Below are positions 60,938-62,710 of a stretch of 64,000 bases of DNA, piece after piece (within the stretch, counting starts at the first letter, position 1; the number at the start of each line of letters is the position of its first letter). The position numbers and the translations under genes were made by a program. The DNA comes from Candidatus Sericytochromatia bacterium (GTDB lineage Bacteria > Cyanobacteriota > Sericytochromatia > S15B-MN24 > VGJW01). Location: the NCBI GenBank assembly GCA_035285595.1, contig JAYKGV010000004.1, positions 3,327 to 67,326 on the forward strand. The letters run 5' to 3'. The notes under the pieces are model-generated. The model was not told where the DNA came from and did not search any database. It saw only the letters and a list, made by a program, of their open reading frames with translations.

Positions 60938-61477
60938 TCAGGCGTTGGCGCTCTTTTCAGCCGCGGGGACCTTTTCGGTGCTCTTGGCGCTGCTCCTCGT
61001 GGGCTTCTCGTGTTCGATCTCGACGCGGGTCACCTGCGGGGGGCGCGTCACAACCGGCTCGGTCGGCGTGGCCGAGGTCTGAAGCCGGTTCACGAGCGCC
61101 TTGCCCGTTTCGAGGCTGTAGTCCACTTCGGAGCGAAGGGTGTTGAGTCCTTCCATCGCGATGCGGGTCGACACTCCGACAAGGTCGGCCTTGCGGCCTT
61201 CCTCTGCGATCGTGTTGAGGACCTCACGGGTCGCCTCGACGGAACGGTCAGCCACTTCCTTGAGGGTCGTGAACGGATCGTCCGAGAGGGTCTCGGTCGC
61301 CTTGACGACGTTCTTGGCGCCGTCGATGGCGGTGTCGAGGACGTGCCGGGTCGCGCCAACGAGGTTGACCGCGCCCAGTTCCTGAGAGGTCTTCTCGACA
61401 TAGGTCTTGAGGTTGTCGAGCGAGTGGACGACGAGCTTCTGGGTGGTCTCGCCGAGATCCTTGACGATGGTCGTCAT
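60938..61477 (-). CDS. Amphipathic helical-repeat (phasin/apolipoprotein-like) protein with own RBS, in-frame with the upstream dead TnpB
   Basis: AAGGAG-N9-ATG 61477 (MTTIVKDLGE...); composition shifts to T/K/E/V-rich; two internal ~60-aa repeats. Confidence 0.75.
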   Translation of the reverse strand: MTTIVKDLGETTQKLVVHSLDNLKTYVEKTSQELGAVNLVGATRHVLDTAIDGAKNVVKATETLSDDPFTTLKEVADRSVEATREVLNTIAEEGRKADLVGVSTRIAMEGLNTLRSEVDYSLETGKALVNRLQTSATPTEPVVTRPPQVTRVEIEHEKPTRSSAKSTEKVPAAEKSANA

Positions 61478-62710
61478 GAGGGTGTTCTCCTTCTGGCGCC
61501 TTGTGGGCGCACCAAGGGACGGGAGGGTTCTTGCCCAGGCATGGGAGGCTTGCGTCCCCCTTCCCGCGCGCCCCTGCACGCCCTTGTCACGGGCAGGAGG
61601 CGGAGATGCAGCCGTGCCGACGGCCTGTCCCCCCGGATCATGCCGGGGGGCTTCGCCGGCTGGGCGGACCCGAGCCGGTGCGATGCGTGCGAGGTGTCGA
61701 GAGGTCTGGAGTACCCGCGGAATCTCTGTCCTGCGGGACGATGACCGGGCAGCCGAAATCGCCGGGATGACGTCGTTGAAGGTTCGTACGGGAACTCCCA
61801 TACGACTGGCCGTACGACGGATCGCCCGGGTGGTCCGGACAAGGCGGCGTCGCGGCCCCTCGGGGAGTCCGGCGAAGGAGCTCTCGTCCGCAAGTTGCAA
61901 GACGGGATGGGGCCGGCGGACAGCCGCGCGGACCACGACTCCGGCAACAGCCATGTCGCACGCGGCCTGATAACGGGCCAGCTTGGCCTCGAGTGCACGG
62001 GCCGACCGATGGGCACCCTTGCGATGCATCGAGGCAATCACCCGTCGCAAGCGGCCAGCCTTGCCCGCTTCGCGTCGGCCGCCGGCGCCCAGCAGGGTGT
62101 GTCCGCGGGCGTCCGTGACCATGGCGCGGTGATGCAGCCCAAGGGCTACCCCCACAGAGGTGCGAGGCTGGAGTCGGCAGCGGACCCGCAGCCACCACCT
62201 GCCCTTGCGGCGACCGATACGGGCCTCGAGCCAGCGCGCACGCTCCGTAAGGCGCAAGAACTGGACCATCTCGAAGTCTTGCGGGAGTCGTGCCTGTATA
62301 GGCAAATCACGGCCCAGGAGCGGCACGATCACGCGCAGCGTCCCATCCGGATGAGGCGCGAGGCTCCATGTGCCTGGAGCAAAGACAGCCCAAGTCCAGC
62401 CCTCGCTGCCAGTGTCCACGGACCCTGCAGCAAGCGCACGTGTCTGCGCCTCGACAACCTCGAGGAGGCTGCTGCGGAAAGGTTCAGGCAAGGCCTCGAG
62501 GCCACTTCGGGCACCGCCCAGCATCATGCGTGCCCGCCTCAAGCCTTCGTCTCGGACGGTCTCGGCCAGGTTCATCCAGCCAAGCGGGGCGAGGGCCTCG
62601 CGCCACAGGGAAGCAAGGCGCTCTGTCTGTTCGCGCACAAGACGCAGCCCTTGTCGCTGGGCCCGGTCGAGGGGCCTCAGCTCGAGGTCGAAGGTGCGTA
62701 GGGTGCTCAT
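60938..62710 (-). CDS. Nuclease-dead TnpB/Cas12f-like protein (TldR-like); TnpB-like part ~62710-61670, no stop before the downstream ORF
   Basis: RTFDLELRP; ARIGRRKGRWWLRV (WED); VGVALGLHHRAMVTD (RuvC-I, D>A); basic bridge helix; LQLADES (RuvC-II, E>A); GVPVRTFND; PRVLQTSRHL (RuvC-III degenerate). Confidence 0.75.
   Translation of the reverse strand: MSTLRTFDLELRPLDRAQRQGLRLVREQTERLASLWREALAPLGWMNLAETVRDEGLRRARMMLGGARSGLEALPEPFRSSLLEVVEAQTRALAAGSVDTGSEGWTWAVFAPGTWSLAPHPDGTLRVIVPLLGRDLPIQARLPQDFEMVQFLRLTERARWLEARIGRRKGRWWLRVRCRLQPRTSVGVALGLHHRAMVTDARGHTLLGAGGRREAGKAGRLRRVIASMHRKGAHRSARALEAKLARYQAACDMAVAGVVVRAAVRRPHPVLQLADESSFAGLPEGPRRRLVRTTRAIRRTASRMGVPVRTFNDVIPAISAARSSSRRTEIPRVLQTSRHLARIAPARVRPAGEAPRHDPGGQAVGTAASPPPARDKGVQGRAGRGTQASHAWARTLPSLGAPTRRQKENTLMTTIVKDLGETTQKLVVHSLDNLKTYVEKTSQELGAVNLVGATRHVLDTAIDGAKNVVKATETLSDDPFTTLKEVADRSVEATREVLNTIAEEGRKADLVGVSTRIAMEGLNTLRSEVDYSLETGKALVNRLQTSATPTEPVVTRPPQVTRVEIEHEKPTRSSAKSTEKVPAAEKSANA
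61629..61654 (-). mobile_element. IS200/IS605 right-end-like hairpin (candidate omega-RNA 3' scaffold)
   Basis: Minus strand GAAG-CCCCCCGG-CATGAT-CCGGGGGG just after the TnpB-like RuvC-III region. Confidence 0.6.

Follow-up and report, generated by a model that had tools for sequence, protein, structure and literature searches.

A tnpB-like gene of the Sericytochromatia continues without a stop codon, and in phase, through an omegaRNA-like scaffold into the gene of a helical protein (H). The observations are a frame conserved in its openness and phase, a structured RNA, an active site that is dead in the copy studied here, immobility and synteny. On balance, we favor the reading that this immobilized TnpB-omegaRNA module makes a rare TnpB-linker-H fusion beside abundant free H, both being predicted products.

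The locus belongs to Candidatus Sericytochromatia bacterium (GCA_035285595.1, contig JAYKGV010000004.1, 3,327 to 67,326 of the forward strand), and these 64,000 nt are referred to as the window. Translation of 62710..60938 on the minus strand gave 590 residues, with one terminal stop and no internal stops. The frame runs from a TnpB/Cas12f-fold domain over a 71-codon linker to a 179-aa helical protein, and the features of the locus are the following:

62759..64000, plus strand: anmK-like gene, the divergent upstream neighbor, with its true start probably near 62829
60938..62710, minus strand: single open frame of 590 codons plus TGA, covering dTnpB, linker and H
61682..62710, minus strand: nuclease-dead TnpB/Cas12f-like domain, residues 1-343 (Foldseek, and orthologue profile against the PDB)
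62144..62146, minus strand: codon A189, replacing the RuvC-I Asp (GVALG here, GVDLG in relatives; alignment)
61889..61891, minus strand: codon A274, replacing the RuvC-II Glu (alignment)
61712..61714, minus strand: codon V333, replacing the RuvC-III Asp, with the adjoining zinc-ribbon Cys pairs deleted or replaced (alignment)
61478..61690, minus strand: 71-codon linker, translated in frame 0 and evolving as structured RNA (omegaRNA-like scaffold plus H leader)
61559..61682, minus strand: conserved RNA core, matching covariance model R1 (G000:C4:64885-65008, E=2.5e-20, the single match in the genome)
61629..61650, minus strand: 8-bp hairpin (helix 2), with 8/8 pairs changing compensatorily among relatives
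61610..61626, minus strand: near-invariant 17-nt block with a 5-bp hairpin, 15/17 positions invariant, read in frame 0 as the pseudo-motif QAVGTA
61488..61493, minus strand: Shine-Dalgarno (SD) sequence AAGGAG of the H gene, Lys-Glu in the long frame, preceding ATG 61477
60938..61477, minus strand: helical protein gene, 179 aa plus stop, with four long helices, disordered at the C-terminal tail

The first-pass annotation had claimed that no stop lies between the TnpB-like domain and the ATG at 61477 with its AAGGAG ribosome-binding site, and the translation bears this out. The start of the long frame is fixed by the sister locus L004, because the frame there opens only two codons ahead of the same Met. 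The same annotation had raised an assembly error as a concern. All sampled words of the stretch were found in three DNA runs, and a fourth DNA run gave contig pieces identical to the window over 61202-61503 and 61513-62479. Contigs from RNA libraries also spanned the linker-H junction (X6, 61336-61574, identical; X9, 60971-61672, 92% identical), a weak hint only, because such libraries can hold DNA. No contig in these libraries covered the tnpB body, an absence that carries no weight.

The N-terminal part of the window protein had no Pfam or NCBIfam match, even at E<=1; PF07282, absent from it, was found in 13/13 aligned orthologues. Residues 1-312 were modeled by AlphaFold with a pLDDT of about 80-94. 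Foldseek on this model recovered the WED-REC-RuvC fold of Cas12f/TnpB structures (9nzq_A, E=3e-10, probability 1.0), including ISDra2 TnpB (8exa_A, E=9e-7), and the family profile matched Cas12f/TnpB chains in the PDB at E=2e-24. The RuvC D/E/D residues were kept in 13 of the 14 aligned sequences, the sole exception being the window copy (A189, A274, V333). Its zinc ribbon had lost the first CxxC through the in-frame deletion of 13 residues, and had S/R where the other sequences have the second Cys pair. TnpB had been described as dead, correctly for this copy, which has lost all three RuvC acids together with the zinc ribbon; most relatives retained the RuvC motifs and the zinc ribbon in the alignment. 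With nuclease and zinc ribbon destroyed, the TnpB part of the window copy could do no more than bind RNA, or bind under RNA guidance, as a module joined to H. Purifying selection on TnpB persists (dN/dS 0.12-0.40, and about 0.29 on the window's branch by three-taxon arithmetic), with identities among the compared relatives as low as 26-34%.

The locus was single-copy in its genome. Searches of this 94.9%-complete genome gave neither a further PF07282 match nor a Y1 transposase (Y1_Tnp), and the marks of mobile IS200/IS605 elements (TnpA, several copies, variable location) were not found. In loci of both family f1 and family f3, anmK was the divergent neighbor of tnpB, and the TnpB and H trees agreed at group level. 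As judged from these comparisons, the element is immobile, syntenic and vertically inherited.

TnpB, linker and H formed one open, in-phase frame in all 16 related genomes with an assessable junction (eight genera, families f1 and f3), two of these loci ending at a contig edge inside H. Stops or frameshifts in the linkers of orthologues, proposed beforehand as the observation that would speak against the read-through, occurred in none of the 16. A ninth genus (f2, locus L030) had a truncated TnpB remnant, still in frame. The linker lengths in the eight genera were 213, 201, 201, 210, 237, 210, 231 and 225 nt, thus six different lengths, all multiples of three, and the metagenome locus L044 had a new length of 228 nt. 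Six further metagenome loci (L042, L043, L045, L046, L048 and L049) represented lineages already counted. L047 was excluded from all counts, as it joins AT-rich DNA inside hairpin 2 and is probably a chimeric 1.6-kb contig.

Length variation was located in two linker segments, one of 37, 43, 46 or 58 nt and one of 34, 37, 40, 43 or 49 nt, and within each segment all lengths had the same residue modulo 3. Hand placement on the tree gave at least nine indel events in the linker, all multiples of three. With phase free to change, the probability of this would be about (1/3)^9, or about 5e-5, and that of a single linker being stop-free by chance was 0.08-0.35 by mononucleotide shuffling; such values are rough, because related genomes are not independent. 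Frame 0 of the linker had no stop in any of the 16 loci, and the +1 and +2 frames had 8 and 9 stops (one locus per genus, eight genera). The window linker itself had 0, 0 and 2 stops in frames 0, +1 and +2.

The nearest outgroup TnpBs, P0017 (369 aa), P0018 (355 aa) and P0020 (350 aa), end 8-21 residues past the RuvC-III motif, and solved Cas12f chains end about 12 residues past it. This distribution marks the read-through of tnpB into H as derived. In a collection of 5.8 billion proteins, all 15 longer proteins with the helical domain were TnpB fusions, of 590-656 aa. Four stand-alone gene calls of fused-type H (166-171 aa) were on short contigs (819-2117 nt), the upstream DNA being out of view.

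The substitution pattern indicates that the linker is not selected as a peptide. Its dN/dS was mostly 0.5-1.2 (range 0.19-2.1), compared with the TnpB values given above and with mostly 0.07-0.24 in H. The dS of the linker was several-fold below that of the TnpB flank in informative pairs. GC3 was 0.59-0.72 in the linker versus 0.8-0.94 in most flanks, the exceptions being locus L008 (0.55/0.63) and the window's own tnpB (0.73). Residues 313-412 were predicted to be disordered (AlphaFold pLDDT <50), and this stretch coincides with the hairpin-rich RNA.

Covariation points to selection of the linker as a structured RNA, and supports the first-pass claim that it overlaps TnpB's own RNA scaffold. 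In the alignment, 96% of the cells were paired, compared with 33-49% with slid partners. Compensatory changes were found in 14 of the 20 RNA pairs, and the observed score was reached by none of 500 shuffles. The 17-nt block lies downstream of the RuvC-III motif at a fixed distance of 64 nt. As in omegaRNAs, the structured RNA is on the same strand and begins at the 3′ end of tnpB. Strong matches to model R1 occurred once per genome and always at this locus (f1, 6/7; f2, 1/1; f3, 10/10); the scaffold is missing in family f4, where TnpB is missing too. No second scaffold copies were detected across the 41 genomes searched, in which there were only three marginal matches (E=0.003-0.008). Rfam, used at a permissive threshold on 11 loci, gave no match in the linker, and a contig scan with P0017 found no outgroup TnpB loci for omegaRNA comparison.

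Potential guide targets were sought by comparing the whole genome with exact 13-mers from the 131 nt that lead up to H and into it. No second-site match of at least 16 nt was found, in a search that would miss guides as short as the 9-11 nt of TldRs. The longest second-site match of the guide-like segment was 15 nt, and the inspected 14-nt matches fell within long open reading frames. The portion of PMC10278001 available describes RuvC-dependent 5′ processing of tnpB mRNA. The proposal that guide processing cuts the fusion mRNA agrees with this for the catalytically intact relatives, and would not apply to the dead copy in the window.

H belongs to a nameless family, restricted to the order. 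By sequence it had no match in the PDB, and its Pfam matches were all sub-threshold (ArnB_C, ORF239-like, Phasin_2). In the protein atlas, the clusters returned had no names and Phasin_2 came no higher than rank 21 (score 0.88), and the AlphaFold model of H was of low confidence (pLDDT 50.7). An identity as a phasin (PF09361) was considered and rejected, the Phasin_2 match being below the cut-off (E=0.04) and found in 1/13 members. A link to PHA was likewise dropped: 33 of 41 relatives had partial PhaC_N matches, whether or not H was present (10/10 in f6, where H is absent; 0/3 in g8, where H is present). A literature search for a connection between TnpB and phasins returned nothing relevant among the matches listed.

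A GGAG(G) motif and an ATG were found ahead of H in all 16 loci. The tnpB start had no SD in genera g1-g3, and in f3 it had a GTG (5/8 loci) and/or a weak SD. We propose a mechanism in several steps. A TnpB gene of the IS200/IS605 type, together with its omegaRNA-like scaffold, would have been fixed once, just upstream of the lineage-specific H gene, in an ancestor shared by two to three families within one Sericytochromatia order, and inherited vertically since. Ribosomes from the weak tnpB start would read in phase through the scaffold linker into H, as tnpB has no stop of its own, giving a TnpB-linker-H polypeptide (about 64 kDa) that is predicted to be scarce. Free H (about 19 kDa), predicted to be abundant, would come from the strong internal SD and ATG. 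The linker would be of dual use, its nucleotides constrained as folded RNA and its peptide, a disordered tether, having merely to stay open and in phase. In the window genome the frame would still be maintained with nuclease and zinc ribbon gone. The fusion may co-assemble with free H, and selection may be preserving it. The first-pass annotation had likewise proposed both products, with a putative tethering of the RNA-guided binder to a granule, membrane or oligomer.

A translational coupling of H to tnpB is possible, although we consider it less probable. The insertion would have separated H from its own promoter and left it with a leader that contains a very stable RNA; ribosomes on tnpB would keep leader and SD accessible, and the fusion would be a functionless by-product. 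The ribosomes must traverse the linker, and therefore selection would act on uninterrupted in-phase read-through. Selection on frame and phase is thus also expected under coupling, and the fusion could be a by-product. The unconstrained linker peptide agrees with this, as does the frame being maintained even where TnpB is dead or truncated. In family f4, H stands alone, without scaffold, and has its own sigma-70-like promoter; a scan of 60700-63000 gave 0 promoter sites, which is not evidence of absence, because it was a simple consensus scan. The SD of H was predicted to be paired in all ten leaders folded. Its occlusion exceeded all 60 shuffles in three of nine genera (g6, g13 and g8), with covarying anti-SD/SD pairs. 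Against coupling, the occlusion was no greater than in shuffles in the other six genera, including the window (12 of 60 shuffles at least as occluded). Coupling would also tolerate a stop just before the SD; there was none in the 16 loci, which is weak evidence because the stretch has only about ten codons. Finally, coupling leaves unexplained why TnpB is under purifying selection instead of having shrunk to a short leader ORF.

A trans-acting, RNA-guided regulator of the TldR type is unlikely. Dead TnpB and scaffold would then form a separate RNP, binding DNA elsewhere or the H leader, and the open frame would be incidental. The window copy is nuclease-dead, immobile and tied to one host gene, as are the exapted TnpBs in the available portions of PMC10691335, PMC10705468 and PMC13622181, and the scaffold RNA is conserved with covariation. 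Most relatives, however, retain all RuvC residues and the zinc ribbon, unlike TldRs. Clade-wide nuclease death and a promoter-aimed guide, by which TldRs are recognized, were not observed, and neither a promoter nor a TAM-flanked target was found in the genome. The lack of a second scaffold copy among the 41 genomes also speaks against this reading, as do the guide search, without matches of 16 nt or more elsewhere and with 14-nt matches inside long open frames, and the 3n indels and missing frame-0 stops, which it leaves unexplained.

That the tnpB stop was lost once by chance or inertia, GC-rich conserved RNA having since gained none, was the alternative offered in the first-pass annotation; it is compatible with the stop-free probability of a single linker and with the nucleotide-level conservation of much of the linker, but we reject it as highly improbable, because the two variable segments changed length repeatedly and only by multiples of three and frame 0 is stop-free while the other frames hold stops, a pattern that persists at just 26-34% TnpB identity.

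Returning to the fusion beside free H, a more far-reaching version of it is speculative, and we regard it as doubtful. Here, an RNA-guided binder would be tethered covalently to a host structural protein via its own guide-RNA scaffold, the same DNA being selected as folded RNA and as in-phase spacer. Scarce TnpB-H would co-assemble with bulk H and put an RNA-programmed DNA- or RNA-binding module on the body of H. In RuvC-active relatives, self-processing of the mRNA would switch between fusion and free H.

TnpB is the ancestor of CRISPR effectors, and its exaptations include TldR repressors, sigma-factor-linked dCas12f and type V CRISPR effectors. Exapted TnpBs continue to yield new RNA-guided biology. 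The clade described here is unusual in that the tnpB stop is lost, a guide-RNA-like scaffold lies within an open frame, and selection has kept phase with a host gene through at least nine length changes in two families. Should the fusion prove functional, nature would have anticipated RNA-guided proteins fused to effectors, and one sequence would clearly be under RNA-structure and reading-frame constraint together. If there is only coupling, a host gene would have been made dependent on the translation of a captured transposon gene. Under either reading, the natural variants (active, dead and truncated) offer a set for dissecting the system.

Compared with known systems, the protein has the same fold and domain order as IS200/IS605 TnpB and Cas12f (ISDra2 TnpB, AsCas12f, OsCas12f). 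Relatives of the window copy share with these the RuvC D/E/D and the CxxC...CxC zinc ribbon, whereas the window copy, unlike active TnpB/Cas12f, is without the three catalytic acids and the zinc ribbon. As in TnpB loci, a structured same-strand RNA begins at the 3′ end of the gene. Unlike mobile TnpB elements, the locus is single-copy and syntenic, with no TnpA found, and unlike the nearest ordinary TnpBs, which end 8-21 residues after RuvC-III, the ORF has no stop there and continues into the adjacent gene.

Internal initiation is known to yield a long and a short isoform from a single frame in Tn5 transposase and its inhibitor, IF2 alpha/beta and CheA long/short. The locus resembles these in its weak upstream start, its strong internal SD and ATG, and two predicted products with a common C-terminal part. 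It differs in that the parts are genes of separate origin, joined by a functional RNA. In coupling of the RNA-phage type, upstream translation opens a sequestered downstream start, and the upstream ribosome terminates. Here too, the SD is predicted to pair with an upstream anti-SD in several genera, but the ribosome would run on in phase, and occlusion was significant in only 3/9 genera.

Our literature search found nothing on TnpB in Sericytochromatia, although the non-mobile TnpB clade tables of PMC10691335 might mention the clade. The closest parallels are the TldRs and other exapted dead TnpBs (fliC-, oppF/DppD-, csrA- and sigma-E-associated), which, in the available portions of PMC10691335, PMC10705468 and PMC13622181, are likewise immobilized, tied to one host gene and followed by a conserved scaffold. 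The window copy resembles them in being catalytically dead, whereas most members of its clade keep an intact active site. In all cases described there, the TnpB derivative is a protein distinct from its partner, with the guide RNA in the 3′ UTR; here, the scaffold joins both in frame.

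Translation of the locus gave the following features, all on the minus strand:

62710..60938, minus strand: a single 590-codon frame with one stop, which is terminal
61488-61493, minus strand: AAGGAG, 8-13 nt 5' of the ATG of H
61477, minus strand: ATG (Met412 of the long frame), start of the 179-aa helical protein H
60543-60887, minus strand: a hydrophobic-looking ORF of 114 aa, in the interval from the 3' end of the H gene to tmk

The open frame that the first-pass annotation had noticed, from a TnpB-like domain to the ATG of H with its AAGGAG, was borne out by this translation, and the observation is now considerably strengthened. 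The 114-aa ORF had no equivalent in the related loci retrieved, and may be spurious or specific to the window's species.

The N-terminal part was detected in 15 of 41 related genomes, a count that leaves out the window's own genome (6/7 in family f1, 8/10 in f3). A sixteenth genome, G025, was added by tblastn. In all 16 genomes the stop-to-stop frame with the TnpB part also contained H (524-692 aa, two frames ending at a contig end inside H), so orthologues keep the frame over the linker, taken here as the stretch between the RuvC-III motif and the start of H. In a ninth genus (f2, locus L030), a truncated TnpB remnant was in frame with linker and H. Close TnpB relatives in large protein collections were, without exception, fusions of 530-656 aa or fragments. 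The 15 "longer" proteins with an H domain all had 590-656 aa, 13 were marked PF07282, and none had another fusion partner of H. The next-best TnpBs were ordinary: the collection proteins P0017 (369 aa, E = 6e-58), P0018 (355 aa) and P0020 (350 aa) stop 8-21 residues past the RuvC-III motif, as do solved Cas12f chains, indicating that the read-through is a derived trait of this clade.

Because the N-terminal 411 residues had no match in Pfam or NCBIfam, even at E<=1, the TnpB label needed its own test. In an AlphaFold model from 14 orthologues, residues 1-312 are folded with confidence (pLDDT about 80-94), 313-412 are disordered, and 413-547 form four long helices. With this model, Foldseek found 9nzq_A (E = 3e-10), ISFba1 TnpB 8iaz_A (5e-8) and ISDra2 TnpB 8exa_A (9e-7), all with probability 1.0. 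The orthologue profile matched Cas12f/TnpB chains by sequence (E = 2e-24), and PF07282 was present in 13/13 orthologues. Together, these results support a TnpB/Cas12f-type N-terminal part.

In an alignment of the TnpB part of the window copy and 13 orthologues, the relatives had GVDLG, a conserved Glu, a CxxC...CxC zinc ribbon and ADLNAARN (RDLxASRN within the same genus). In the window copy, the three acidic residues are replaced by A189, A274 and V333; a 13-residue in-frame deletion takes out its first CxxC, and the second pair is replaced by non-Cys residues. Judged by these residues, the window's copy is dead, as first annotated, and most relatives are not. It is still under purifying selection, with pairwise dN/dS of 0.23-0.27 against its sisters and about 0.29 on its own branch (three-taxon arithmetic from the pairwise values). 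The window tip was long in the TnpB tree (0.45 vs 0.025-0.14 in sisters) and proportionally as long in the H tree (0.068 vs 0-0.015): the species has simply diverged further. For the dead tnpB (61682-62710), GC3 was 0.73, below the sister species (0.83) and the adjoining H gene (0.86), hinting at relaxed codon-level selection or low expression. Genera g4 (L008) and g8 (L014-L016) have lost ~70-80 residues of the TnpB N-terminal helical region in frame, and the f2 remnant (L030), of ~110 residues, has neither zinc ribbon nor RuvC-III. These losses are independent, each still in phase with H. P0019, a related f2-type protein, has an intact C-terminal half.

The linker does not evolve like a selected peptide. 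Its dN/dS was mostly 0.5-1.2 (range 0.19-2.1), vs 0.12-0.40 in TnpB and mostly 0.07-0.24 in H. Its synonymous rate was several-fold below the TnpB flank in informative pairs (window and L004: dS 0.21 vs 1.11 and 0.29 in the flanks), and its GC3 was 0.59-0.72, vs 0.8-0.94 in most flanking coding sequence. Its substitution pattern is instead that of a structured RNA. RNAalifold predicted several helices, with compensatory changes at 27 of 44 pairs. In a 124-nt core, 96% of cells were paired, vs 33-49% with partners slid, both sides had changed at 14 of 20 pairs, and 0 of 500 shuffles reached the observed score. An 8-bp helix had compensatory changes at all eight pairs. A 5-bp helix sits within a near-invariant 17-nt block, which read in frame 0 gives the peptide "QAVGTA", a motif in appearance only. 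A covariance model of the core gave one strong match per genome, always at the tnpB-H locus (f1 6/7, f2 1/1, f3 10/10), three marginal extra matches, and no match in f5-f7. No Rfam family matched the linker RNA. The first-pass annotation had named the region TnpB's own RNA scaffold. This stood as far as a covarying structured RNA that begins at the tnpB 3' end, keeps a fixed register to the RuvC-III motif and is missing where TnpB is missing; a TnpB omegaRNA scaffold, which the linker RNA putatively is, has the latter three properties.

The last conserved motif before a variable spacer is CCCTTG (61510-61515, minus strand; CCCTTA in genus g10), always 26 nt past a conserved CATGCC in all relatives, a position at which one would expect a transposon right-end cleavage motif or a TAM-like YTTR. 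It presumably resembles Cas12f NTTR PAMs. In L047, a metagenome contig of 1631 nt, ~30% GC DNA (~560-800) takes the place of tnpB, and its junction with the GC-rich locus falls exactly within the 3' arm of hairpin 2. Either the contig is chimeric by misassembly, or tnpB has truly been replaced there, with distal scaffold and H kept.

Linker lengths in eight genera were 213, 201, 201, 210, 237, 210, 231 and 225 nt, with 228 nt in the metagenome locus L044 and, by hand count, 69 codons in the collection protein P0016 and 58 in P0019. Landmark spacing placed the variation in two segments. The distances from motif to conserved block (64 nt), block to AAGG loop (40 nt) and CATG to CYTT (26 nt) were constant; AAGG to CATG was 37, 43, 46 or 58 nt, and CYTT to ATG 34, 37, 40, 43 or 49 nt. 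Inside each variable segment, lengths shared one residue modulo 3. Placed by hand on the TnpB/H tree, the changes require at least 4 + 5 indel events, every one a multiple of 3. With free phase, nine such events would have a probability of roughly (1/3)^9, about 5e-5 by our own arithmetic, an order of magnitude only, the relatives not being independent.

We propose that ribosomes from the tnpB start would translate the scaffold region into a disordered spacer and stay in phase through H; the resulting TnpB-linker-H protein would be rare, with bulk H coming from the internal start. The tnpB start had no SD in genera g1-g3, and GTG (5/8 loci) and/or a weak SD in f3, vs GGAG(G) and ATG for H in 16/16 loci; on these signals, any long product should be rare and free H abundant. 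Contigs of three RNA libraries, possibly including DNA, weakly hint at a linker-H transcript: X6 (identical to the window, 61336-61574) and X9 (a 92%-identical relative, 60971-61672, with two 1-nt indels, a deletion and an insertion, separated by 7 nt) span the linker-H junction, and X8 lies inside H (61214-61389). According to PMC10278001, the TnpB RuvC site cuts its own mRNA at the omegaRNA 5' edge, leaving 3' sequence attached. In catalytically intact relatives, such a cut would part tnpB from the scaffold-H mRNA; the window's dead copy could not make it, so read-through would be the default there. The earlier interpretation is partly supported: orthologues keep the frame, and guide processing of the fusion mRNA would not apply to the dead copy. 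The simplest idea is that the fusion would place an RNA-binding or RNA-guided module on H's putative assembly.

The main rival is translational coupling, where upstream translation into H would explain the frame constraint almost as well. The SD was predicted to be paired in 10/10 leaders folded, and in genera g6, g13 and g8 its occlusion exceeded that in every one of 60 shuffles, and the anti-SD pairs there covary. The other six genera, including the window's, showed no such excess over shuffles (window 12/60). Coupling leaves the purifying selection on the TnpB moiety unexplained. That a stop was lost by chance in GC-rich DNA, as the first-pass annotation had allowed, is not tenable: a single linker is stop-free on shuffling with a chance of 0.08-0.35, but frame 0 had no stops in 16/16 loci, whereas the +1 and +2 frames of the same linkers, serving as internal control (one locus per genus), had 8 and 9. 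Assembly error, for which a read check had been advised, is unlikely, because three DNA runs held all sampled words of the stretch and a fourth had pieces identical to the window over linker and tnpB.

Of the order's 27 genomes, 25 had the H gene; it was not found in the 14 genomes from the class's other families. In f4, H is a stand-alone gene that lacks the scaffold; its open frames measure 179-238 aa, and it has a sigma-70-like promoter of its own. Two f4 loci (L033, L034) share a TTTACA-N17-TATCAT/TATACT promoter-like pair ~100 nt upstream of H, and a further conserved block upstream of it, suggesting that this pair may be the ancestral promoter displaced by tnpB insertion in f1-f3. The divergent upstream neighbour of the tnpB-scaffold-H unit was always anmK in f1 and f3; tmk and a penicillin-binding protein gene lay downstream in f1. 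The window's genome (94.9% complete) had a single copy of each part, no other PF07282 match and no Y1 transposase, and the TnpB and H trees agreed at group level. Conserved neighbours, single copies, lack of the transposase and agreeing trees fit one ancient insertion in front of H, then vertical descent. Several homologues had Candidatus Sericytochromatia as source name. Partial PhaC_N (PF07167) matches, covering profile positions ~117-173 in open frames of 330-460 aa, were widespread in the class (window's genome, G000:C64:7026-7196, and 32 other related genomes), and may represent PHA synthases or alpha/beta hydrolases related to them.

Literature searches gave no match for TnpB with Sericytochromatia and nothing relevant for TnpB with phasin. 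The passages that a term search brought up in two TldR papers (PMC10705468, PMC13622181) did not mention a natural TnpB fusion. TldR identity was rejected, since the active site is retained in most of the clade and the search for a target at a promoter gave none. The clade belongs with the exapted TnpBs, whose associations, as catalogued in PMC10691335, are sigma-E, SpoIIE, flagellin, DppD, RHH, PrimPol, GATase and "other non-mobile". That catalogue describes all of them as separate genes with untranslated guide regions, whereas here one frame runs through the scaffold into H.
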